Shown in pieces: positions 1-11,581 of a stretch of 64,000 nucleotides of DNA; the stretch's first letter is position 1, and each line of letters opens with the position of its first letter. The position numbers were made by a program, and so were the translations under genes. The stretch is taken from contig SVQK01000110.1 in assembly GCA_015065385.1 (NCBI GenBank), positions 3,902-67,901 of the forward strand, given 5' to 3'. The DNA is from Oscillospiraceae bacterium (lineage in GTDB: Bacteria; Bacillota; Clostridia; Oscillospirales; CAG-272). Under the pieces are notes generated by a model that made no database searches, was not told where the DNA came from, and saw nothing but the letters and a program-made list of their open reading frames with translations.

Positions 1-3000
1 ATAAGTTTCAGTATTATTAATCACAAAAGTACTAAAATCATATCCATATACGTCAACCATGTCTTTAATTGTATTGGGATCATTCTCATTATGTGTCAAA
101 CCATTCAACATAGGATGCGTCGGTGTTGCTTCCAGTTCATAGTGCCCATCAATGCCAGGTTCCAATACCATGTAGGTATGGCCGGTTGTATCCATATGTC
201 CGTTTTGGTCATATACGCCAGGGGCAATCGAAAGACTCTGCTCCCATCCACCGGTTTCATTAAGTTCTGCTTTGAAATAATAGAAAGGTCTAAAATTGGT
301 TTCAGCAAGCTTTATTGCCGAAACTTTTTCATCTTCATTTACAATCTTATTTGCCGATTCTATTGAGTTTATATAGGTCTCATATGCATTATTAAAAGCC
401 GCAATCGTGTCTTCCGTAGGATCCACTAAAACATATAAATCAACTGCACTTGGCTTATCCTCATCTGAAAGCGTAGAATTCCATATTTTCTTTAAATTAA
501 TCTGTGTATTATCAAGAGGCATGCCTCCAACTTCAGGAAGTGTTACAGTCATCTCATCCGATTTTACAACAACAGGATGTCCATTTTCAGTTGTAACAGT
601 AGTTTCCTTAAATTTCACGTTTGCATTTGTATTTGTTCTTAAGACATAAGGTATTTGTGAATTATCTATCTGCACTCTGTATTCATCAAATTGAATCGAA
701 GGCTCATTAGGATCATATGTAAAATCTTGTCCCCATTTGAATCCGTCAGGATCATCAATACCGTTATTTAGTGCAGCAATTATGTCATATGAAGGCTGAC
801 TCGGCCAGATCTTAAATTTGACTTTATACGTCCATCCTTTCTCTGTATAGTAGTCAGATCCATCTGCCTTAACCAACTTCCATTCAACATTCTTTTCTGT
901 TGATTCACCCTGTCCTTTCTTACTGAAAACAGCCCCCTTAATCTGAACAGGATTTGTTGTAATTGTTTCTAATTTCCCTTTTCTAATGGCATGATAAGTA
1001 ATTGCAGGGATCGAAATTATTTGATTATTACCGTTTCCGGAAACTACAATCGGGACTGTTTTCTCTTCATACGCCGTCAGTGAAGTATAATCTCTATAAG
1101 TAATTGTATATTCAAATGATTCCGGATCAACATCTTCAAAAGTGACAGTTGTCATTTCAGAGATACCATCATAAATATCAACATCGCTGTATGTGAAATT
1201 CTGACTGATTACACGAAGTATCTTATTAAGTCTTTCTTGAAGAGCGGCTCCATTTGTTGCAAAGAAGCGACATTCTTGTGCTGCATTATCATCGTTGTAT
1301 GCATAGTTAATCAAATCACCAATATAGTCATTAGTTTCATCAACACTTGTGCCATATGAGAAAACTCCAAAGAAGTATGCTCCAGTTGAAGCTAAAGCTC
1401 TTGCCTCATCTCTTGCGCCAAGATAACATCCTTGCCCATCAACGAATAAATCATCTGTATACTTACTTGTATTCCAATATTGAGACGGAGCGCCATCAGT
1501 TAAAAACAATACATAAGTCGGATCATCATCATCCAAACTACCAACCATCGTTTTGGCTAAATCTAACGCTTCTGCCCAGTTTGTTCCGCTGGCAGTACTT
1601 GCTGAATTTAGGCCGTTTTTAATGTCACTTGCTTTATCAGTCCAATTTGCTCCTATAGATGCGCTTTTATTGAATGTAATCAAGGCATATTCTATCGATC
1701 CTGCATGCTCTCCTGTATTTTGTGCTTCTAATTGATCTAGAAATTGTCCAACTTTTTGCTTTGTTTGAAATAGTCGGCTATTCGGATTTGTTAAATAATC
1801 AGAGAGCTTATCTCCTTCTGTACCATCTGGTTTTAAATTTTGAGGTCTTTCCATACTACTTGAATAGTCAACCACAAAGAGAATATTAACATTATTTTTA
1901 TCCTGATCTTTCTGAGCGGTTGTAGAAGCACTTAATTCAAGATTGTATGTCCCATCATAATTTGAAGATAACTGTTTATCATGTCCGATAGCTCCTAAGT
2001 CCGGAGGTTGAATATTATCATCATCTCCCGCGTTTTCGTGTGTATATAATGGAGAACTATAAACCAAATAATAATCTTTTATACCGTCATATACAGGTGT
2101 CTTATCAATTCCCCCATTATGGTCTTTACTTGAAAATCTTGGTCTATATCCTGCTTCCATCCAATCTGATCCAGCTTTATCACTGTTTGTAAAGAAAGTA
2201 TAGTAGTACACTTTCCCTTGATCTGTCAGCTTTAGTTCGTTACCAATTATTGAATGGGGTTGCTGTGTATTTTCTTGATCACCTGGTTTAGGAATATAAT
2301 TCCCACTATTATTTTTCATAATATCTTCATGAGTCTGACGATGTGTATTACTTAACGTCATCCCATTAGGAGCTATAAACTGAGAAAGATCTATTAGCAT
2401 ATCATTCGGATTATCCGGATCCGGCGTCATTACAAGATAATCATAGTTAATATGTTCACCATTTACTGTTTCACCATTAATATAGGTCACATCAATTGTT
2501 TTTCCTTGCTCATTTACGAAGTGCAATCTTACATCAAGTGTGTTTGTATTTACTGCTTCGGATAGATATAGCCACTCTTGATGATAATCATCAAGCAAAC
2601 TGCATTCCGTTTGAGTACTTAATGTATATACATTCTCTCCCAGACTGTACAAATTCAAATATGATATTTCTTGTCCATTTGGATATGTAGAAATTCTATA
2701 CCTGCTGGGATTCGAGTCATCAACTTCCACAAAGAACAAAGTGGCATTATTGGTATTATTTGTCAACGATAAACCATTATTAAAGCTCAAATACGAATCG
2801 TTATGTTTGATTTTATAAGTGCTGCCCCAATTTGAAGGTGAATACTCAAATGTCCAGTATTCGGCATTATTGTTGTTCGCATTAACAGCCTGAAGTGACG
2901 TTCCCCAATAACCTGTATTAATCCCCGAGGACATTTGAAGTCCTTGTTCACCTGCCGAACTTGTTATACGGAATGTACGTCCATTCAGTTGTGCTTCTAT

Positions 3001-4155
3001 TTGTGCATCCGTTACAGTTATTATAAATTCTTCCTCATTATTCATTACAATCTTTAATGCCTGTCTTGACAAGAACGGTTTTATGGATATAAAAGCCCAA
3101 TCCCCGGCTTTTATTACTTGTGTTTCAAAAAACTCTTTCTGCTCTTCTGTTAACTCTATCGAATACTGGTCTTCAAGTTCCTGTTGTATCTTTATATCTC
3201 TTACTGTTGTATCTGTTTCTATTTTTCCAACCCATACTAATTCTGTATCACTAAATTCAGCTGTCTTGATATTATCTATAAACGACCATACTTCGTTCTC
3301 TTCCGTTTCTGGATTGTCAGTTATAACCCCCAGCACCGGCAACAGATCACTAAGCCCAATTCCGCTTCCGCCAGTGATGCAGTATTCAAATTCCTTCCCA
3401 TCAACTTCGTAACTGAAATCAACAGTATAAACCACCCCATACACAGAGAATCCCGTGGCAACAAAACTGACCGTACCTGCTTCGCTTGAAGTTACGGTAG
3501 CAGGTTCAGCAGTGAACGTGGCTGCATTTTCTTCTTGTGCGACATAGTCTTCAACGTTCGGGTTATCTTCTACATCCATCGCGGCTTGCTCGGATTCGCC
3601 GTTCAGTTTCAGACCGTTTGAAACGTAAGCAAAATTCTCGTCCGTTGTCCATCCCTCTTCGGCATCGGCCTGTTCAAAATCCGCATTTGCCTTAAAATGG
3701 AACACGTTAACTTCTGCGCATTCGGGAAGATCGATCTCTCCCATATCGATAGAAACACCAACAGGGACGGCAGGTTCTATTTCCCGGCCATCCTCGTCAA
3801 GGATAGATATTTCGAAGAATCGGCTATAGACAGCCTTCTGACCGACTCTAAGATATGATTCAGCAGCTCTGAGGTATTCATCCGCATCCATCACTTCGCT
3901 TGTAGTAAGTGAAGCGTTAGCGGGAATCTCAGCGTCTTCGCCGTAGTTTACCTTGATGGAATAGTCTCCATTATCGGGTAATCCGACCAGCTCGCCCGCG
4001 TCATATGTCTTCTTCTCCGTCGTTACAACGGCTATCGTCACTGACAGAGCCGGCGCGGCGAGGCTAAAAAGCATCACACATGCCAACAAGAGTGAAAGAG
4101 CTCTCCTCCCCACTCTCCTGTAATGATAGATTGCTTCAAGCGTTCTGAGTTTCAT
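1..4155 (-). CDS. vWA-domain pilus tip adhesin-like surface protein (N-terminus complete; C-terminus beyond the window edge, >=1385 aa)
   Basis: Absent from the ORF track because it has no stop in the window. Hand translation of the minus strand from ATG 4155-4153 (AAGGAG 8 nt upstream) stays open to base 1. Signal peptide MKLRTLEA..LLLACVMLFSLAAPALS. vWA/MIDAS motifs VNILFVVDYSSSM (DxSxS), SGTNW and YVLFLTDGAPS. Lies directly downstream of a class C sortase and an LPXTG pilin. Confidence 0.8.
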   Translation of the reverse strand, partial: MKLRTLEAIYHYRRVGRRALSLLLACVMLFSLAAPALSVTIAVVTTEKKTYDAGELVGLPDNGDYSIKVNYGEDAEIPANASLTTSEVMDADEYLRAAESYLRVGQKAVYSRFFEISILDEDGREIEPAVPVGVSIDMGEIDLPECAEVNVFHFKANADFEQADAEEGWTTDENFAYVSNGLKLNGESEQAAMDVEDNPNVEDYVAQEENAATFTAEPATVTSSEAGTVSFVATGFSVYGVVYTVDFSYEVDGKEFEYCITGGSGIGLSDLLPVLGVITDNPETEENEVWSFIDNIKTAEFSDTELVWVGKIETDTTVRDIKIQQELEDQYSIELTEEQKEFFETQVIKAGDWAFISIKPFLSRQALKIVMNNEEEFIITVTDAQIEAQLNGRTFRITSSAGEQGLQMSSGINTGYWGTSLQAVNANNNNAEYWTFEYSPSNWGSTYKIKHNDSYLSFNNGLSLTNNTNNATLFFVEVDDSNPSRYRISTYPNGQEISYLNLYSLGENVYTLSTQTECSLLDDYHQEWLYLSEAVNTNTLDVRLHFVNEQGKTIDVTYINGETVNGEHINYDYLVMTPDPDNPNDMLIDLSQFIAPNGMTLSNTHRQTHEDIMKNNSGNYIPKPGDQENTQQPHSIIGNELKLTDQGKVYYYTFFTNSDKAGSDWMEAGYRPRFSSKDHNGGIDKTPVYDGIKDYYLVYSSPLYTHENAGDDDNIQPPDLGAIGHDKQLSSNYDGTYNLELSASTTAQKDQDKNNVNILFVVDYSSSMERPQNLKPDGTEGDKLSDYLTNPNSRLFQTKQKVGQFLDQLEAQNTGEHAGSIEYALITFNKSASIGANWTDKASDIKNGLNSASTASGTNWAEALDLAKTMVGSLDDDDPTYVLFLTDGAPSQYWNTSKYTDDLFVDGQGCYLGARDEARALASTGAYFFGVFSYGTSVDETNDYIGDLINYAYNDDNAAQECRFFATNGAALQERLNKILRVISQNFTYSDVDIYDGISEMTTVTFEDVDPESFEYTITYRDYTSLTAYEEKTVPIVVSGNGNNQIISIPAITYHAIRKGKLETITTNPVQIKGAVFSKKGQGESTEKNVEWKLVKADGSDYYTEKGWTYKVKFKIWPSQPSYDIIAALNNGIDDPDGFKWGQDFTYDPNEPSIQFDEYRVQIDNSQIPYVLRTNTNANVKFKETTVTTENGHPVVVKSDEMTVTLPEVGGMPLDNTQINLKKIWNSTLSDEDKPSAVDLYVLVDPTEDTIAAFNNAYETYINSIESANKIVNEDEKVSAIKLAETNFRPFYYFKAELNETGGWEQSLSIAPGVYDQNGHMDTTGHTYMVLEPGIDGHYELEATPTHPMLNGLTHNENDPNTIKDMVDVYGYDFSTFVINNTETY

Positions 4156-4260
4156 GGTAGTATCTCCTTGGATATGCTGTTGATTCGAGGATACATTGTT
4201 TTTTAACAATCTTTAATTAAGGCCCTAAAATTATATTGAGCCACAACCCTTATAGACTAT

Positions 4261-4316
4261 GAAAGATCAGTCTCAACATCCAGTTCACATGCCCTGTTGG
4301 TAATAACTGATCTTTC
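4261..4316. repeat. 11-bp perfect inverted repeat (GAAAGATCAGT / ACTGATCTTTC) with a 34-nt spacer in the AT-rich sortase-adhesin intergenic region
   Basis: Arms 4261-4271 and 4306-4316 are exact reverse complements, read directly. Confidence 0.6.
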
Positions 4317-4360
4317 CATTCGCCTACACAACCCATTCTTTATGGGAGGGTAGATATATA

Positions 4361-5323
4361 TTATCTCTTTCCTCGAGGTTTCTTATTGTCTTTCTCTGTT
4401 GCCTTTTCCGCTTCGCCCCAGAGGTCGTAGTCTCCCATCATCGGGTTCTCTTCCATCTGGTTCAAATAGGCAAGCGCCGCTTTATACAGCTGATCTCTTC
4501 TCTTCTTCTCTCTCTGGTTGCCGCCGAGAGCTACGACGAGCAGCAACAGAAGCAGGATCGGAGCCATCACGACCGGCGTCACCACCAGCGGATCGATCTT
4601 CATGGCCTCGGACGTGAAGTGCAGCGTGTGATCCACGATGTTCTCCACGCGTGTCCCCCGCACCAGTAACCTATGCGTGTTGATACCGTACGGCGTACAG
4701 GTCACGAGCGTCACATAGTCCTCACCCGGATAGATCTTCATCAGTTCCACATCTTCCGGCAGAACGATGTTGATCTGATCCACCTCGTAGGAGTATTCCT
4801 CTCCGAGGATGTACAGCGAGAACCGGTCGCCGACGCGGAGCTTGTCGAGCTCTGTGAACAGCTTCGCGGACGGCAGTCCCCGGTGTCCGGAGATCACCGC
4901 GTGGGTGCTTTCTCCGCCGACCGGAAGGCTGGACCATTCGAGGTGTCCCGTGGCAATCTGCAAAACCGCGTCGCTCGTTCCGTGGTAGATACCGAGATAG
5001 CACTTGATCGCCGGGATCTCGATATACCCCATCATCCCCGAACCGTTGAAGTTCAGCTGGGACTCATAGTCGGCAAGCTCGTCCTCTTTCAGTAGACGGG
5101 CCGTTCCTCCGACTTCCGCCCACCGTCTGTTGTATTCCTGAGCCGCGTACCGGATTTCGTCCAGCGCGCTTGTGTCCATTGCGGCGATTTCGTCCGCGTA
5201 GGAAGCGATCGCTCTCGATTGATGGAAGGAGTTCCAGTAATCGGAAAAGGAAGGATAGAGCAGGAGTCCCACGCCGATGAAAAAGGCCAGAACCAGAAAG
5301 ATATTCGTAATTCGGTTCTTCAT
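4361..5323 (-). CDS. srtC: Class C (pilus-polymerising) sortase
   Basis: TLVTCTP catalytic Cys motif, HAVISGHRG His region and LLVRGTRV Arg. N-terminal TM (MKNRITNIFLVLAFFIGVGLLLY) plus a C-terminal hydrophobic anchor (PILLLLLLVVALGG), typical of class C. Start moved to the ATG at 5323 within track ORF 4361..5428. Flanked by pilin and adhesin genes. Confidence 0.9.
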   Translation of the reverse strand: MKNRITNIFLVLAFFIGVGLLLYPSFSDYWNSFHQSRAIASYADEIAAMDTSALDEIRYAAQEYNRRWAEVGGTARLLKEDELADYESQLNFNGSGMMGYIEIPAIKCYLGIYHGTSDAVLQIATGHLEWSSLPVGGESTHAVISGHRGLPSAKLFTELDKLRVGDRFSLYILGEEYSYEVDQINIVLPEDVELMKIYPGEDYVTLVTCTPYGINTHRLLVRGTRVENIVDHTLHFTSEAMKIDPLVVTPVVMAPILLLLLLVVALGGNQREKKRRDQLYKAALAYLNQMEENPMMGDYDLWGEAEKATEKDNKKPRGKR

Positions 5324-5385
5324 GCGCCCGCGCTCTGCTCCTTTGTCCTCCCGTGGGATGATTGCTTTACACTGTGTTTCCGGGG

Positions 5386-5448
5386 AGAAAACTGAACCCG
5401 GAGGTTCAGCGCTCTCCCCGCCGGGCAAACCGTGTGCAGCTTGCCCGG
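5386..5448 (-). terminator. Two tandem hairpins between pilin and sortase genes; the second is followed by a T-run (partial terminator/attenuator)
   Basis: On the minus strand: CCGGGCAA-12 nt-TTGCCCGG (5448-5421), then CTGAACC-tccg-GGTTCAG (5409-5392) followed by TTTTCTCC. Confidence 0.5.
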
Positions 5449-5488
5449 ACGGAGTTGTTTAGTTGGTTTGTTTCAGATCAAAGACCGA

Positions 5489-7678
5489 TTAGTCGTCAAC
5501 CTTGCCCATTCTCTTCTTGGAGACGAGCACAACGCCCGCGCCAACCGCCAGCAGACCGCCGACGATGTAGAAGATCGTGGTACCGATACCACCAGTGGAG
5601 GGAAGCTCGGTGCCCTGAGTATTCTTCAGGAACGTCGTATTATCAGCTTCCTGAATAATAGTTTCCCGTTCGGCTTCTTTGTGCTGATTTGTCCAAGAAC
5701 CAGTGGATGCAGTACTTGTAGAACCAATCACAGTAAATGCATTAATTCCAGTTCCTTCTGTAGCAACATCATTATCAGGAGCTGCCTTATAAGTCGGAGT
5801 GCCATAATCAAGAGTATACTTTGAGGTAACAGTATTATCTCCGTCTTTCACAGCAACAGTATAGAAGTCAAGAACTTTGGAAGAATAAGTAATAACGATG
5901 CCGTTTACTTCTTCTTTGACGGTGACTTCTTTGTAAGTGGGAGTTATCGTGATTTCCTTTACTGTTCTGTCAGCAATAAATCCATCCGGTGCCTTGGTCT
6001 CGACAAGGTAGTATGTACCAGCATCCAAACCTCTGATATCAAGCTTACCCACATTATTACTGGTAAATCTTGCAACAGCGCGGTCATCGGCAGCATAGTA
6101 AGCATTGGTGTAAATCCCGTCTGCAGTGGCCAGTTCATCGTAACTCTTCTTCACAGTTGCAGCAGCTTGGGCAGCAGCTTCAGTTGTGAACAGACCAAAT
6201 ACAGCCCCTTCAAGAGGATATGCCTTTACACCATTATCATAAGATTCAAGTTTCTTTTCAGTAATCCAATTTCCTGCAGCATCAATTCCAACTTTAACAA
6301 GTTCGGAAGTATCATAGCCACCAGATTCCTCTCCATTAATGTCAGCATCAAGGGAGAAAGAGTAATGAGTTGTCACATCCTTAATGATTCCAGTATCGGA
6401 TTCATTTGCGGGGTTATTAGAATACTCAACTTTAACTTCGTTCTTTGTCTGATCTACATTGTGATACGCAGCAGTCGTAACTTTAGCTTTATAAGTGATT
6501 TCAACATTCTGTTTCTGATTCTGAGACAGAATATATTCAGAAGAGAATTCGACAGCAATGCTTGTTCCTTCGTTGGTAAATGTAACAGATTTGAATACCG
6601 CTTTTGCAGGGGTACCAAAAGTGTATTTAGTTGTATGGTTTGTAACATCATCCGCAGAAGCAAACTCAAAAGTATCGTTTCCAACTTTTACTGTAAACTT
6701 ATTTGTTGTATCAAGTACAGTCTTCAGGCCATTAGACAGAGTATCAGTTACATTAAACTTAGCCCAAGTATAGTTGTCAGCATATTCAGGCATCTGAGTC
6801 GAAATCTTAAAATCCAGAACTTCGCCAACATCCGCTGTAGCAACTGTCTTGGAAGGATCCTGAGCAGGAGTGGTATCGCTATCTGTTACTTCCTTTGTAA
6901 CAGTGATATCTGATTTTTTAGCGATTGCAGTATCGGAATAAGAATCAGAAGTAGTAATTGCCCATTCATTATGGAATTTAGTATCACCCTCACCTGTAAT
7001 CTGTTCCTGACTAAAGTCGGCAGATACAAATACAGGATTGTACATTACGCCCTCTTCACCGGCATCGATAAGGGCAAGATAAAGACCGGGCTTGATTTTC
7101 TGAGCACCCGCGGTAGAAGCATCAGAATCATCATAGGTGGAACTGGTGCTGGAGATTTGCGAATCAGTGTATGCTACAGTTGCGGGTTTGGTTTTCGCAA
7201 TTTCAGCAATTTCAGCCGCGAGAACAGAGTTGATTCTACCAAGAACCTTTTCTTTTCCTTCAGGAATTTCAACTCCCGTACCATCTTCCTTTACTTGATA
7301 TCCAGCAGGCATACCGGTGATATAGGTGAGAACACTCTTTGCAAAATTATCACGAATTGCTTTTTCTGTGTCACTAGCACCAACGACATAACCATTACTG
7401 TCCAGTCCAGAGGTTGCAAGCCCGTTAAAGTCAGTTGTTAAAGCCCAACCTTCGCTGTCAACCCATTCGATTACCTGATAGTACTTCACAGTGTCTCCTG
7501 CTTTAAGTGCTGTAATCGTTACTGAAGGATCCTGAGTAACGTTTCCAGCTGGTGTAGAAGCAACAGGAGTGTCACTTTCAGTCGGGGTAACCGGGTCATC
7601 CGCAAACGCCGCAACACCCAGCCCAAGCACCATCGTGATGCTCAGAAGCAGTGCGAGAATCTTTTTGAAGTTTCTCAT
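5489..7678 (-). CDS. LPXTG-anchored pilin (probable major/backbone subunit)
   Basis: Signal peptide MRNFKKILALLLSITMVLGLGVAAFA. C-terminal sorting signal LPSTGG + hydrophobic stretch + KKRMGK. Cna-B/SpaA-like segment GAVFGLFT..GTYYLVETKAPDGF. The track ORF starts at TTG 7699; the ATG at 7678 gives a better signal peptide. Confidence 0.85.
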   Translation of the reverse strand: MRNFKKILALLLSITMVLGLGVAAFADDPVTPTESDTPVASTPAGNVTQDPSVTITALKAGDTVKYYQVIEWVDSEGWALTTDFNGLATSGLDSNGYVVGASDTEKAIRDNFAKSVLTYITGMPAGYQVKEDGTGVEIPEGKEKVLGRINSVLAAEIAEIAKTKPATVAYTDSQISSTSSTYDDSDASTAGAQKIKPGLYLALIDAGEEGVMYNPVFVSADFSQEQITGEGDTKFHNEWAITTSDSYSDTAIAKKSDITVTKEVTDSDTTPAQDPSKTVATADVGEVLDFKISTQMPEYADNYTWAKFNVTDTLSNGLKTVLDTTNKFTVKVGNDTFEFASADDVTNHTTKYTFGTPAKAVFKSVTFTNEGTSIAVEFSSEYILSQNQKQNVEITYKAKVTTAAYHNVDQTKNEVKVEYSNNPANESDTGIIKDVTTHYSFSLDADINGEESGGYDTSELVKVGIDAAGNWITEKKLESYDNGVKAYPLEGAVFGLFTTEAAAQAAATVKKSYDELATADGIYTNAYYAADDRAVARFTSNNVGKLDIRGLDAGTYYLVETKAPDGFIADRTVKEITITPTYKEVTVKEEVNGIVITYSSKVLDFYTVAVKDGDNTVTSKYTLDYGTPTYKAAPDNDVATEGTGINAFTVIGSTSTASTGSWTNQHKEAERETIIQEADNTTFLKNTQGTELPSTGGIGTTIFYIVGGLLAVGAGVVLVSKKRMGKVDD

Positions 7679-7707
7679 TTGTTTCTTTTTTCCTTTCAAA
7701 TAATGTA

Positions 7708-7725
7708 TTTACACTTTTGTGTAAA
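7708..7725 (-). promoter_or_regulatory. 7-bp stem hairpin (TTTACAC-aaaa-GTGTAAA) just upstream of the pilin RBS
   Basis: Perfect inverted repeat read directly, followed on the minus strand by the T-rich sequence tacattatttg. Function is unknown (weak terminator or processing/stability element). Confidence 0.35.
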
Positions 7726-7744
7726 CTGTTTTGATTCCGAAGGC

Positions 7745-9955
7745 TCAGAAAGCCTCGGTCGTAACGGTGACGCTGCCTCTGCGGAAAGCGTCGGGGGTGA
7801 GCTCGGTGACTTCGCCGAACTCGTTCACGCGGTACACCCTGCAGTCCGCTCCGTCCTCCGTCTCGATGCCCTCCACCGTGACCTGTACGGGTCCGAGCGG
7901 GAGGATCTCAACGAGGGTGTAGGGGCGTTCTTCGGGTTCGCCCTCGGCGTCCTGTTCAGGTTCGGCGGTCGTCTGTTCCGGTTCGGCAGCTGCCTGCTCC
8001 GGATCATTGGTCGCCTCCTGTGCCTGAGGATCTTCCGCCGGCGTCATCTCTTCCGTCGGTTCCGGATCCGCGGGCAGGTCCGCGTCGGACTTGAAGCCTT
8101 CCATCTCGAAGGGGCCGAAAGCCGCGAACTCGTCTTCCGTCGTGAAGAAGTCTTCCGTTGTAAAGAAGTCTTCTTCCTCGGGAGCTTCGTTCTCCCCGGC
8201 CATGCCGTCGTTACCTTCGGCGTCGGCTGCGGGTTCGAATTCCTTATGCCAGATCGAGATTTCAAACAGTCTCGTTTCCGCCGCTTTCATCCCGTCGGGA
8301 GCGAGCAGCGAATCGATGGACTGTACCGCGCTGTCGTAGGGGTCGGACGCGTCTTCCGCCTCGCCGTTCCCGTCCTCGACCTCGGAGATCTTGAGCACAA
8401 GCTCTTCCGCGGGGAAGGAGAAGGATCCGGCATCGGCAAAGAGCGTCGCCGTAATGCCAAAGCCCGTATCTGCCGTGAGAAGCACGTCGGTCGGGCCCGC
8501 TGTCAGCGGGATGTCGGCCTCGGGAATCGCTTCCCCTGCCGCCGCCGTCATGACAGCGTTTTCTTTCTGAACTTCTTCGGGCGTCAGCCGCGGTTCGGGG
8601 TTCTCCGGCAGAGCCAGATAAGCCGCGATGTGTCCGGCAGAGAGGGTAAAGAATTCTTCTCCCACGCCCTGCTGACGCTGACCCATGATCAGGGTGATTT
8701 CGGTATCGGGCCCATCCTCGGTTTCGATCTCGTTCAGCGCGCTGACGATACCGGCCCGGTCGATCAGACCGTCGCCGTCGTCGTCGCAGAACGCGATATC
8801 GCCGGGTACGGGAGCCTCTTCCGCTTCCCTCAGAAGTCCTTGATCCGCCGCGGTCGTGATCCACCGCGCGGGACTGGGATCGACCGGAACGCCGTAGATA
8901 CCCGCGTAGTGCAGGCAGAACATGACGAACAGTCCGTTCCAGTCTTCGTAGGGATTGCCGTACCATTCGCCGTAACGGGTGTAGCCCCGCTTGACGTTGT
9001 AGGCGTCCGTAATAAAGTTGAGTTCGCTTTCACGGTAGCCCTCCTGGCTCCTTGCGACGGCCACAAGGTCGTCGGACCAGACGCCGGTCAGCTCCGTGTT
9101 GATCAGAGTGGATTCCCAGTCAAGGGAGATTTCCACGTCTGCGTGAGGATCGCCCGTCAGCTTCGGATAGCAGTCGTCCGTGTGGACGTGCTCTTCCTTG
9201 CCGCAGACGAGAACCTCGACCGTTTCATAGCAGTACTCGTTGTGTATGTGGCCATAGCCTGCGGGAACCTCGCAGATAAACCGCGGTGTCCGCACGATAC
9301 ACTCTTCGGTGTGTACATGCTCCGGATCTTCTTCCAGACCGCAAACGAAGGTTTCCTCCCATTCGATGCAGTCGGCGGTATGTTCGTGAACCGCTCCCGC
9401 CTCCAGTCCGCAGACCGGAACCGGATTCGGGTCAAGACAACCTTCGCCGTGGGTATGCCCTTCGCTCTGTTCGAGACCGCAGATATATTCATAGCATTCC
9501 GCGCCGTGTATGTGTTCCGGATCTTCGTCCAGTCCGCATACCGTCACCCACCGTTCGCCGTAGCAATCCTCCGTGTGCTCGTGTTCCGGATCGTCTTCCA
9601 GACCGCACAGGAGAACGGTTTCGGTCGCCCGGCACTCTTCGCCGTGAACATGACCTTCGCTCTCTTCAAGACCGCAGATATACCCGGGATTCGAGAGGAA
9701 ACAATCCTCGGTGTGAATATGTCCTTCGTTCTCCTCAAGGGGACATATGAGCCGCGTCTCCGTGGCGTAACACTCTTCCGTGTGGGTATGTTCTTCAAAA
9801 CCGCACGCAGGAGCGTATTCCGTCGTAGTCGCAGGCATAACCAGCGCCGCAACGGTCGTAACTGCTACCGCCGCCGCGAGCCACGAGAAGGCGACTTTTC
9901 GCTTTCTTCGCTTTACCGCGGTCTGAACGGCTTCGTTACTCAAGTATAAATCCAA
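7745..9955 (-). CDS. Membrane-anchored protein of unknown function: N-terminal TM, ten C-x5-8-H-x-H-x3-C repeats, degenerate CHAP/NlpC-P60-like region, adhesin-like module, acidic tail
   Basis: 736-aa ORF (TTG start, GGGGGA upstream). First gene behind the consensus promoter at 10195-10223 and co-oriented with pilin, sortase and adhesin. The 756-aa plus-strand ORF 7679..9949 is its Arg-rich antisense shadow. Confidence 0.75.
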   Translation of the reverse strand: MDLYLSNEAVQTAVKRRKRKVAFSWLAAAVAVTTVAALVMPATTTEYAPACGFEEHTHTEECYATETRLICPLEENEGHIHTEDCFLSNPGYICGLEESEGHVHGEECRATETVLLCGLEDDPEHEHTEDCYGERWVTVCGLDEDPEHIHGAECYEYICGLEQSEGHTHGEGCLDPNPVPVCGLEAGAVHEHTADCIEWEETFVCGLEEDPEHVHTEECIVRTPRFICEVPAGYGHIHNEYCYETVEVLVCGKEEHVHTDDCYPKLTGDPHADVEISLDWESTLINTELTGVWSDDLVAVARSQEGYRESELNFITDAYNVKRGYTRYGEWYGNPYEDWNGLFVMFCLHYAGIYGVPVDPSPARWITTAADQGLLREAEEAPVPGDIAFCDDDGDGLIDRAGIVSALNEIETEDGPDTEITLIMGQRQQGVGEEFFTLSAGHIAAYLALPENPEPRLTPEEVQKENAVMTAAAGEAIPEADIPLTAGPTDVLLTADTGFGITATLFADAGSFSFPAEELVLKISEVEDGNGEAEDASDPYDSAVQSIDSLLAPDGMKAAETRLFEISIWHKEFEPAADAEGNDGMAGENEAPEEEDFFTTEDFFTTEDEFAAFGPFEMEGFKSDADLPADPEPTEEMTPAEDPQAQEATNDPEQAAAEPEQTTAEPEQDAEGEPEERPYTLVEILPLGPVQVTVEGIETEDGADCRVYRVNEFGEVTELTPDAFRRGSVTVTTEAF
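9170..9805 (-). repeat. Coding tandem repeat array: 10 units of 19-23 aa, each with 2 Cys + 2 His (consensus CGLEExxEHxHTxEC)
   Basis: Residues 51-262 of the 7745..9955 protein. Units read: CGFEEHTHTEEC, CPLEENEGHIHTEDC, CGLEESEGHVHGEEC, CGLEDDPEHEHTEDC, CGLDEDPEHIHGAEC, CGLEQSEGHTHGEGC, CGLEAGAVHEHTADC, CGLEEDPEHVHTEEC, CEVPAGYGHIHNEYC, CGKEEHVHTDDC. Confidence 0.85.
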
Positions 9956-10194
9956 ATCGTTTCACATCCCCCTTCGTCGCGTCGGAGCGTTAATCACATC
10001 GGCCCGACATCGGATGATATCCCGCCTGACAAAGCTGACTATCATAGCGTGGGTTCGGCGGTTCCGCCCCTTTTTTCGGATCTAAATCCGGCTCGGAGCG
10101 GTTTTCCGGCAACCCGGCAGGGTTCCGCACAGATCCTGTCTGCGTCGGACGGCTCCCGGGCCTGCTCTCCGTAAACCCCAAAGATACATTGTTG

Positions 10195-10223
10195 ATTATA
10201 TCACGCTTTGACCGCCCTGTCAA
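10195..10223 (-). promoter_or_regulatory. Consensus sigma-A-type promoter of the pilus operon
   Basis: On the minus strand, TTGACA (10223-10218), a 17-nt spacer, then TATAAT (10200-10195). It lies ~235 nt upstream of the first start codon. Confidence 0.6.
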
Positions 10224-10700
10224 TGGGAGGCGTTCGTTTTCTCGCATGAAATCCGGTAATTTTTTCCCGCGGTTCCTGACTGTTTTACCCATCAGGAACC
10301 GCCCGCTTCTCGGAATCAGGCTACAGAAACGCACCCACTCCCGACCGGTTTCAGGACAAACTGCCCTGAGTTTGCAGTCTGTATTATACAACACCTCTTT
10401 CTCAATTGCAAGTCCACTTGCATGAACGGCGATTTTTCTGCATGAAAATCCATCCGTTTGCAGAGCGGCTTCCGATTCGCCGTCGCCGGGATAGGCTTGT
10501 CCCTGTCCCGCCCGGAGTCAGGCCGAATCCGGCTTAGGGCGCGCGTTCCGACCGACGCGGGCTTCGATCGTGAGCGCTGTGTCTGAACGAACCGCGGATC
10601 CCTGTTGTGTGATTTTTCCTGCCCCGCGGCGGTTCGTTCTGTCCCTTCTGCCCCGTAAACAATCCGCCTTCCCCGAATGTTGCACCGATCGGAAATTTTT

Positions 10701-11321
10701 TCAAAAAAATTTTTGGAGCGCGGATCCGTCCCCCGTCACGACCGCGTCCGCTCGGATATCGTTCCCGTCCGCGGGGATCTCCTCCGTCAGAAGCGCCTCG
10801 TGGCAGAGGCAGAGGACCGCGGTCTTCTCTTCCCGGTTCGGGGAGGCAAGCGGCGCGAGATACCGGTCGTAGTACCCCGCCCCGTGGCCCAGCCGCTCCC
10901 CCCTCCGGTTCGCCGTCACGCACGGCGCGAGGATCAGATCGACCTCAGCCGCGGCGGCGGTCTCGGGCGGATCGTCCGGATCAAAGACCGGCTCCGGGAT
11001 CCCGAGCGTCCCCGGCAGAAGTTCTTCCATCGACCGGATCCGCACGGCAAGCATGGTCCGCTCCGGCCCGGGGAGGCATTTCGGCACATAGACCCGCTTC
11101 CCCTCAAGGAGAGCCTGCTTGATCAGCCCGCGCATGTCCGGTTCTTTCCCCACGCTGACATACAGGAACACCGACTCGGCGTCCCGCCAGATCCGCGAGG
11201 CAAGGAGTTCCGCCTCGATCTTCCGGGAGGATTCCGTCGCCGCCTCCTCCGTCATCCCGTCCGCCCGCCGCCGGATCCGCTCCCGCAGACGCCGTTTTTC
11301 CGCGCCGATCTCCCGCTCCAT
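10701..11321 (-). CDS. 5-formyltetrahydrofolate cyclo-ligase
   Basis: Size (206 aa) and family-typical layout: REKRRLR.. N-terminus, ..FLYVSVGKE..T, ILAPCVTANRRGERLGHGAGYYDRYL. Confidence 0.8.
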   Translation of the reverse strand: MEREIGAEKRRLRERIRRRADGMTEEAATESSRKIEAELLASRIWRDAESVFLYVSVGKEPDMRGLIKQALLEGKRVYVPKCLPGPERTMLAVRIRSMEELLPGTLGIPEPVFDPDDPPETAAAAEVDLILAPCVTANRRGERLGHGAGYYDRYLAPLASPNREEKTAVLCLCHEALLTEEIPADGNDIRADAVVTGDGSALQKFF

Positions 11322-11510
11322 CCATCGATCCCGTCCTTTCGTTTCTTCCCTATTTTATATAGTATAGCACGCCCCCTGGTTCCCGTCAAGAGAATCCCCC
11401 GTCCCCGTCCGCAAACAGGCAAAAACGCCGGGCGGGGTGGGCAGAATCCCCCGCTTCTCTGTGAAGTTTCACGATTTTCACCGCTTTGTCCTCCGGTTTC
11501 CGAAAACCTC

Positions 11511-11539
11511 TTGACAGGAGGGTGTTTTCTGCGTATAAT
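11511..11539 (+). promoter_or_regulatory. Promoter of the arg operon
   Basis: TTGACA (11511-11516), a 17-nt spacer, then TATAAT (11534-11539). It lies 43 nt upstream of the argC ATG. An AT-rich ATTATTCAAAA follows the -10 (only a partial ARG-box match). Confidence 0.6.
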
Positions 11540-11581
11540 TATTCAAAATCGCTGAAAAAGTATGCGCAAAGGAGGCGGCAC

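Follow-up and report, generated by a model that had tools for sequence, protein, structure and literature searches.

Mature pilin cores of low GC appear to be exchanged between retained secretion and sorting signals in a pilus locus of rumen Clostridia

Introduction

Why do two neighbouring surface-protein genes of a GC-rich bacterium turn AT-rich in mid-frame, and is the change a trace of exchange? The question is raised by a 64,000-nt stretch of DNA (hereafter the window; contig C105, positions 3902-67901) from a 4.31-Mb, 128-contig metagenome-assembled genome of a rumen member of the Clostridia. At its left end stands what is, by its predicted products, a class C sortase pilus operon in a genome of ~60% GC, with its genes on the minus strand in the order Cys/His-knuckle protein, backbone pilin, sortase and VWA tip adhesin (Table 1; positions refer to the window, negative ones lying to the left of its first nucleotide). 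An earlier reading made from the letters alone (the sequence-only reading) had proposed that low-GC cores of the pilin and the adhesin were swapped in by recombination, while the secretion and sorting ends and the sortase were kept. For the pilin this proposal is borne out by a second allele in a sister strain, whereas for the adhesin no second allele of the species was found and the support is indirect, from composition, module-wise similarity and the syntenic relative L125. Overall, we consider it likely that the resident secretion signal, anchor signal and sortase were kept, and that the exposed core of the pilin, and probably most of the adhesin, was exchanged for low-GC foreign segments.

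A sister strain carries an unrelated pilin core between the same gene ends

A protein search with the window pilin returned full-length relatives at 57-69% identity and also pilins that match only its first ~28 and last ~44 residues. One of the latter, P0063, is encoded on L015, an independent 7-kb rumen metagenome contig from a sister strain. Positions 1-3963 of L015 match window 7595-11551 at 97.7% DNA identity, and positions 6037-6960 match window 4691-5614 at 94.9%; the ~2 kb between these two matches shows no blastn similarity to the window, and the protein cores cannot be aligned. The window allele (A) and the L015 allele (B) nevertheless agree in 27 of 28 signal-peptide residues and in 42 of 44 anchor residues, the DNA of the sorting-signal segment being 97.7% identical. 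On the 5′ side, DNA identity stops exactly after the AAFA| cleavage site (window 7595); on the 3′ side it resumes at GGC ACC GAG CTT CC, in the codons of GTELPSTG (window 5614).

Because these junctions fall at the AFA cleavage site and at GTELPSTG, what was exchanged is, to judge from the two alleles, the mature pilin polypeptide and nothing else. At least two unrelated cores exist in the species at this one site. Comparison of the two strains supports allelic replacement of the pilin, with sharp breakpoints close to those first proposed, and it is very likely, on the alignments above, that the mature pilin region was replaced through recombination. Core B is low in GC as well, with a GC content at third codon positions (GC3) of 0.36 between ends of 0.64 and 0.73.

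The pilin itself (729 aa, window 5489-7678) combines SpaA and pilin-BB domains, an E-box and an LPSTG motif, and the Pfam families SpaA, GramPos_pilinBB and Gram_pos_anchor all score above their cut-offs. The E-box-like sequence, YYLVETKAPDGF, lies in the core. Against the NCBIfam SpaH/EbpB major-pilin model the protein reaches 76 bits, below the cut-off of 95, and is not a formal member of that subfamily. It has no canonical YPKN, and an invariant AxAKKS in the interdomain linker of the family alignment is a candidate pilin-motif lysine only.

Relatives of the window core occur in unrelated hosts

When core and flanks are considered separately, their nearest relatives part company: the flanks match the sister strain L015, and the core aligns over its whole length with P0007-P0010 (57-69% identity), which come from unrelated hosts. 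The signal peptide of these four pilins (MKRLKKIMALVIAMAMVV...) is not that of the window pilin, and neither is their tail (...VTRRRMDA). Because the core is thus met in unrelated hosts with ends that differ from ours, the window gene is, by this comparison of sequences, chimeric, with ends of host type around a foreign core.

On the 3′ side, the change of partner was located in a DNA alignment of five genes. The window tracks the P0007 family until a 48-nt block encoding GTELPSTGGIGTTIFY, which hardly differs among the five (45/48 identical against L012, the locus of P0007), and from there follows L015 to the stop codon; the switch falls within the block, and the 3′ crossover is therefore placed, as the probable site, inside window 5567-5614. 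On the 5′ side, window and L015 agree as far as the cleavage site; a linker of 14 residues seen in the window alone, DDPVTPTESDTPVA, comes next, and similarity to the core family begins after it. This Pro/Thr-rich linker (window 7541-7594) is absent from the core relatives and from allele B, and could be a remnant of an earlier allele or junction filler.

The distribution of the core family is patchy and, on these searches, does not track host relatedness, as expected for horizontal transfer. Relatives of the core were not found in 53 genomes of the same genus, which gave anchor-tail matches only, nor in 400 genomes sampled from the order, a result that is informative as absence only. We found no near-identical core in a second species: all exact copies come from the same strain, and the members at 57-69% identity from unrelated hosts. 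In L117, whose host is GC-rich and distantly related, those housekeeping neighbours of the pilin for which our genome yields a match reach 41-56% identity, versus 57% for the pilin.

Taken as a mechanism, the mature backbone pilin segment, from the signal-peptidase site to just before LPSTG, would have been replaced by a low-GC core from another lineage, while the host would have retained its own sortase gene and intergenic DNA and, within the pilin gene, the signal peptide and sorting signal. The 3′ crossover would have run through the ~48-nt LPSTG block, which is almost identical DNA among otherwise unrelated pilin genes, and the 5′ join would lie where the signal peptide ends, over a short stretch of similarity only. 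After its entry into the species, a core would need no special route: homologous recombination in flanks of 95-98% identity would suffice to move it between strains. A more speculative extension, which we regard as possible but doubtful, is that the GTELPSTGGIGTTIFY block, perhaps with the signal-peptide end, serves as a community-wide recombination handle, near-identical across unrelated pilin families in hosts of 42-60% GC.

Base composition and integrity of the assembly

The compositional contrast is confirmed genome-wide. The host genome has 59.6% GC, and its 1-kb windows (n=4239) have a mean of 0.596 and a standard deviation of 0.044; those of the adhesin and the pilin are within the lowest ~0.5%. 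Among 1780 open reading frames (ORFs) of at least 300 aa in the host genome, only one falls between the adhesin, which ranks lowest in GC3 at 0.29, and the pilin at 0.34; the genome mean is 0.74, with the sortase at 0.73 and the upstream gene at 0.70. In the first 20 kb of the contig, binary likelihood segmentation sets change-points at window -2308, 3326/3327, 4519/4520, 5619/5620 and 7736/7737 (segments in Table 1). The GC values that the sequence-only reading had counted on six single lines reproduce exactly (38.3, 40.0, 43.3, 45.0, 61.7 and 65.0%), its start codons for the adhesin (4155) and the pilin (7678) are correct, and its breakpoints near 3400, 5640 and 7560 come close to the segmentation, the latter two lying within ~35 nt of the L015 junctions. 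The spacer at 4156-4360 is AT-rich, as it had been described.

Within the pilin gene, the ends are GC-rich and the core AT-rich, again as first described, with GC3 of 0.64 in the signal peptide (28 codons), 0.30 in the core and 0.76 in the last 42 codons. Both ends differ from the core (Fisher p=3e-4 and 4e-9, respectively) and neither differs from the sortase. The arrangement recurs among pilins of the same genus: signal, core and anchor have GC3 of 0.71, 0.45 and 0.72 in G004 and of 0.64, 0.44 and 0.56 in G067, in loci where the sortase and other non-pilin pilus genes are at 0.71-0.81.

A trivial origin of this mosaic would be an assembly that joined low- and high-GC organisms at short shared sequences, or else a protein composition rich in Thr, Asn and Lys. 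The genome is a metagenome-assembled genome in 128 contigs, the LPSTG block is conserved enough that an assembler might be led astray there, and the proteins are indeed rich in Thr, Asn and Asp. Yet at least seven other samples (ENA, JGI, Logan) carry an identical locus at 99.98-100% identity, and one 15.5-kb contig from another sample spans every junction; with independent assemblies from three repositories, a chimera was rejected. As for composition, the amino acids of the adhesin and the pilin would under host codon usage give a GC of 0.52-0.62 and a GC3 of ~0.78, against 0.33-0.40 and 0.2-0.3 observed. Because both values fall far below this expectation, amino-acid bias, which the sequence-only reading had named as a possible alternative cause of the shift, was rejected too: the shift sits at synonymous sites. 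Taken together, either form of artefact is barely credible. As expected of horizontally acquired DNA, the adhesin and the pilin have GC3 that is atypical beyond their amino-acid content, and the pilin core has its nearest relatives outside the lineage.

Several of these contigs of the strain (L206-L210, window ~5287-10171) end 1-202 nt into the pilin-sortase spacer (window 5287-5468), and related sortases are on contigs of ~1.4 kb (L097 and L098). Contig ends near the 3′ end of the pilin suggest assembly-graph branching where shared and variable segments meet.

The low-GC body of the tip adhesin

The adhesin is a protein of 2049 aa that runs 1994 nt past the left edge of the window to C105:1907, and its true C-terminus has an LPSTG and membrane anchor matched by LPXTG_anchor (TIGR01167). 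In Pfam, VWA_2 scores above its cut-off (E=1.4e-8) and DUF7604 is also matched. Its closest relatives are 40-57% identical. The body is AT-rich from about 3400 leftwards, as had been proposed (GC3 0.27), with a sharp GC3 step at codon ~276; the first ~250 aa, which had been taken for host-like, are instead intermediate. Over the first 275 codons GC is 0.48 and GC3 0.47, differing from both the body (p=3e-11) and the sortase (p=1e-10), and the sorting-signal codons are not significantly enriched in GC. A module that the adhesin had been said to have in common with the upstream protein proved marginal (BLASTP, 13/26 identities, E=0.03) and is not used as evidence here.

Three large LPSTG adhesins encoded elsewhere in this genome, on contigs C98, C123 and C126, are paralogues that have the leader and N-terminal module in common with it; their GC3 is 0.70, 0.78 and 0.54. 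Over the first ~300-400 aa the window adhesin is 44% (tblastn) or 42% (BLASTP) identical to the C98 paralogue, and the leader DNA is 83% identical. Elsewhere, P0127, an adhesin 50% identical to ours, has a GC3 of 0.54. Because the paralogues are at 0.54-0.78 and P0127 at 0.54, the adhesin family is not intrinsically AT-rich.

Similarity changes along the protein by module. Residues 1-250 resemble the adhesin of L125, a syntenic relative whose sortase is 79% identical to ours; from ~250 to ~1600 the closest relatives are P0127 and P0129, at 30-50% before aa ~550 and up to ~80% beyond (50-aa windows); and residues 1600-2049 resemble neither L125 nor P0127/P0129. In L125 itself, the N-terminus of the adhesin has GC3 of 0.62-0.66 and an identity to ours of 70% falling to 40%, and the body has GC3 of ~0.3 and ~18% identity, with the drop near aa 250. 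A second adhesin allele of the same species was not found, as the members of its cluster all come from this strain and differ by a single substitution or are truncated. Searched against DNA from across the genus, the 5′ region of the adhesin and the spacer recovered only a 71-nt match to the C98 leader and two short weak matches, and at the loci of the core-pilin relatives, relatives of our adhesin were not found adjoining the pilin. Following the pilin, the adhesin body from about codon 276 would be a low-GC import joined to a leader and N-terminal module of the type found in the other adhesins of the genome; from the sequences at hand, we lean slightly towards this view.

Could low GC be intrinsic to such genes? 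Selection (acting, say, on expression control, on mRNA structure or on how slowly secreted Ig-like domains are translated) or a local mutational bias would then keep them AT-rich, and the pilin alleles would be old balanced polymorphisms. The low GC of both alleles would be expected, as would a GC3 of 0.29-0.33 across the core family in hosts from 42% GC to GC-rich, and same-genus pilus loci whose pilins and adhesins lie below their sortases in GC3. It is hard to reconcile, however, with native paralogous adhesins of the same architecture at GC3 0.70-0.78, with a 50%-identical adhesin at 0.54, with the absence of the core from the 53 genus and 400 order genomes, with a core at least as conserved between distant hosts as housekeeping proteins, and with a pilin gene that is demonstrably chimeric at the LPSTG block. 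We therefore think an intrinsic origin unlikely. Why every core stays AT-rich could be explained by rapid turnover from a low-GC pool, or by selection.

Organisation of the operon and its surroundings

Table 1. Features of the pilus locus, compositional segments and related genes (window positions unless another contig is given).
Feature	Position	Strand	Composition and remarks
Adhesin, low-GC body	1-3326	-	GC 0.36, GC3 0.27; VWA, DUF7604 and SpaA-type stalk domains
Adhesin, leader peptide and N-terminal module (codons 1-276)	3327-4155	-	GC3 0.47, intermediate
Sortase-adhesin spacer	4156-4360		GC 37%; within the 0.47 segment
Class C sortase	4361-5323	-	GC3 0.73, host-like; 94.9% DNA identity to L015
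Pilin-sortase intergenic region	5324-5488		Within the 94.9% block in common with L015 (4691-5614)
Pilin cell-wall sorting signal, host-type	5489-5614	-	GTELPSTGG, membrane helix, KKRMGKVDD, stop codon
48-nt block encoding GTELPSTGGIGTTIFY	5567-5614	-	Probable 3′ crossover site
Mature-pilin core, allele A	5615-7594	-	GC 0.41, GC3 0.30; SpaA and pilin-BB domains
Pilin signal-peptide codons, host-type	7595-7678	-	MRNFKK...AAFA|D; GC3 0.64
Intergenic and ribosome-binding region upstream of pilin	7679-7744		Within the 97.7% L015 block
Membrane-anchored Cys/His-knuckle protein, first gene of the operon	7745-9955	-	GC3 0.70, host-like
Segment	-2308 to 3326		GC 0.363
Segment	3327-4519		GC 0.466
Segment	4520-5619		GC 0.575
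Segment	5620-7736		GC 0.413
Segment	7737 onward		GC 0.611
Paralogous adhesin, same genome (G000)	C98:9558-14957		
Paralogous adhesin, same genome (G000)	C123:6281-10597		
Paralogous adhesin, same genome (G000)	C126:15888-22649		
Pilin P0007 (69%)	L012		Pilin GC3 0.31; GC 0.46 context with integrase
Pilin P0009 (66%)	L116		Pilin GC3 0.34; 13-kb stretch of GC 0.42, neighbours GC3 0.39-0.49
Pilin P0010 (57%)	L117		Pilin GC3 0.34; beside PEPCK, RPE and others of GC3 0.72-0.85

The sortase matches NF033745 (class_C_sortase) at 258.6 bits against a cut-off of 160 and the Pfam Sortase family at E=1e-23, has the TLVTC catalytic motif, and is the only class C sortase in the genome at E<=1e-40. That it had been retained, as first proposed, accords with its host-like GC3 and with its nearest relatives (77-83% identity), which are on GC-rich contigs of the same genus with GC3 of 0.82-0.87. 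Other relatives, at 82-90% identity, are on contigs of 1.3-5 kb, with DNA only 80-84% identical and no flanking alleles. The closest orthologues, in L111 (G057:C15:3818-4776) and L124 (3671-4645), stand alone beside uvrA; L111 has a feoB-like gene on its other side, and the copy in G057 is split by a frameshift. No pilin or adhesin was found near these solitary sortases, which, on their gene context, look like the relic of a pilus locus without its substrates.

The knuckle protein is 98.6% identical to its L015 counterpart, and a Pfam search gave no match for it. In L012 (13769-22130), C..HxH Cys/His-knuckle repeats are found at the N-terminus of a giant adhesin of more than 2787 aa, beside the 69%-identical pilin; in our operon, knuckle repeats form the separate first gene. 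Upstream of the operon are housekeeping genes, for a 5-formyl-tetrahydrofolate cyclo-ligase and a semialdehyde dehydrogenase. Past the adhesin follow an AT-rich stretch, whose left border is at contig position 1593, and, just beyond the 3′ end of the gene, a truncated family-2 glycosyltransferase (C105 998-1507, window -2903 to -2394), the C-terminal fragment of an IS66-family transposase (C105 90-596, window -3811 to -3305) and the end of the contig.

A mosaic does not by itself tell which parts came in, and the direction could be the reverse: a whole low-GC pilus operon would have been imported, its sortase, intergenic regions and gene ends being later overwritten by resident sequence. The IS66 fragment and truncated glycosyltransferase just past the adhesin are compatible with such an import, as is the similarity in GC3 between the pilin core and the adhesin body (0.30 versus 0.27, p=0.07). 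On the other hand, a strain with a different core has the same upstream flank, which runs on into housekeeping genes, at 97.7% identity, the overwriting would have had to take in precisely the gene ends of 84 and 126 nt and no more, and relatives of the pilin core are not found beside relatives of the adhesin. We judge this order of events quite improbable, less probable still than intrinsic low GC.

Several points nevertheless weigh against replacement by imported cores. Only two pilin alleles were seen, both of them low in GC, and a GC-rich 'original' allele was not found, which leaves the direction and timing of replacement to inference. All members of the core family have GC3 of 0.29-0.33 whatever their host, including the GC-rich host of L117, and selection that keeps pilin genes AT-rich could account for this uniformity. 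The searches pointed to no donor organism. Where residues are identical, codons agree somewhat more often in the GTELPSTGGIGTTIFY block (0.60-0.81) than in the core (0.48-0.51), but this extra synonymous conservation is marginal (p=0.019 for L012, 0.60 and 0.19 for the others). For the adhesin, there is one allele only, the GC of the N-terminal module falls short of host level though above that of the body, and the similarity to the native C98 paralogue runs past the GC change-point to aa ~398, so that the junction is not pinned down.

Low GC3 is also met elsewhere in the genome. Further islands, at C105:222551-226341, C63:16463-17947, C36:26140-28356 and C114:34429-39648, encode secreted proteins of unknown function and a trypsin-like protease, and others resemble a fused DNA methyltransferase and Cas3/Cas8-like proteins (by eye from the sequence, without a domain search). 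These islands appear to be the usual mix of accessory and defence genes.

Comparison with known variable surface loci

In the pilus loci of pathogenic streptococci, backbone pilins and tip adhesins are variable, antigenically distinct and exchanged by recombination, the unit of exchange usually being whole genes or islands. The T antigens of the FCT region in group A Streptococcus (GAS), the PI-2a/2b backbone variants of group B Streptococcus (GBS) and the RrgB clades of pneumococci are allelic backbone types at fixed loci; we know of no marked compositional contrast reported for GAS, GBS or pneumococcal pilus alleles. Low-GC polymorphic surface-antigen loci between conserved flanks are familiar from the O-antigen rfb clusters and pneumococcal cps, and flagellin fliC has conserved ends around an unrelated central region. 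All of these have many unrelated alleles per site, exchanged through conserved flanks or ends and often below host GC. Their export and assembly differ from those of our locus, whose ends retain a Sec signal and a sortase sorting signal.

The closest parallel is provided by the PI-2 pili of mitis-group streptococci (pitA/pitB variants; Zahner et al. 2011, PMC3178606), whose sortase and signal-peptidase genes are conserved and whose variants, homologous and ~20% divergent, have been transferred horizontally within and between species. As in our locus, divergence there begins right after the signal peptide and stops right before the cell-wall sorting signal, and the same logic is proposed; at least two variants occupy one locus in close strains with flanking genes conserved (97.7% and 94.9% between the window and L015). 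Unlike the PI-2 variants, our two cores are unalignable, lie 15-20 GC points (~40 GC3 points) below the host, and, for the window core, have relatives in distantly related hosts; our organism, moreover, is an uncultured rumen commensal, whereas the PI-2 hosts are naturally competent streptococci. The tandem lpl cluster of Staphylococcus aureus is reported (PMC2568036) to have a conserved unit made of the 3′ end of one ORF, the intergenic region and the 5′ end of the next ORF, with variable centres. As described there, this unit crosses ORF borders as ours does, ours consisting of the pilin 3′ end, the spacer and the sortase, and possibly the adhesin 5′ end; the lpl genes, however, are tandem lipoprotein paralogues in one genome and not a pilus operon, and no GC contrast is described for them. 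The locus is thus a clear and more extreme new example of a known mode of Gram-positive pilus variation.

Implications for pilus variation

If the pilin core was indeed exchanged as we propose, one sortase can serve interchangeable shafts because it recognises the retained sorting signal, and the same would hold for interchangeable tips. From the two alleles, we would expect a swap to alter the antigenic, phage-receptor or substrate-binding properties of the pilus with the assembly machinery unchanged. Should the LPSTG block act as a recombination handle, rumen Clostridia would draw pilin and adhesin cassettes from an inter-lineage pool, each host keeping its own sortase and sorting signal, and the persistent low GC of the cores would mean that turnover is faster than amelioration.

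For metagenomics, the locus offers an explanation of contig breaks at sortase/pilin borders and of foreign-looking pilin genes in coherent bins, and low-GC pilin segments should not be binned out as contamination. With two cores, one sortase and one cell-wall sorting signal, it is also a natural system for studying sortase-substrate modularity. The unit of pilus variation in this uncultured rumen commensal is the mature polypeptide, not the gene, and one chassis of sortase and sorting signal would, from the alleles compared here, accept unrelated shafts. The pattern known from oral streptococci is thereby extended to anaerobic gut Clostridia and to exchange across hosts of very different GC.

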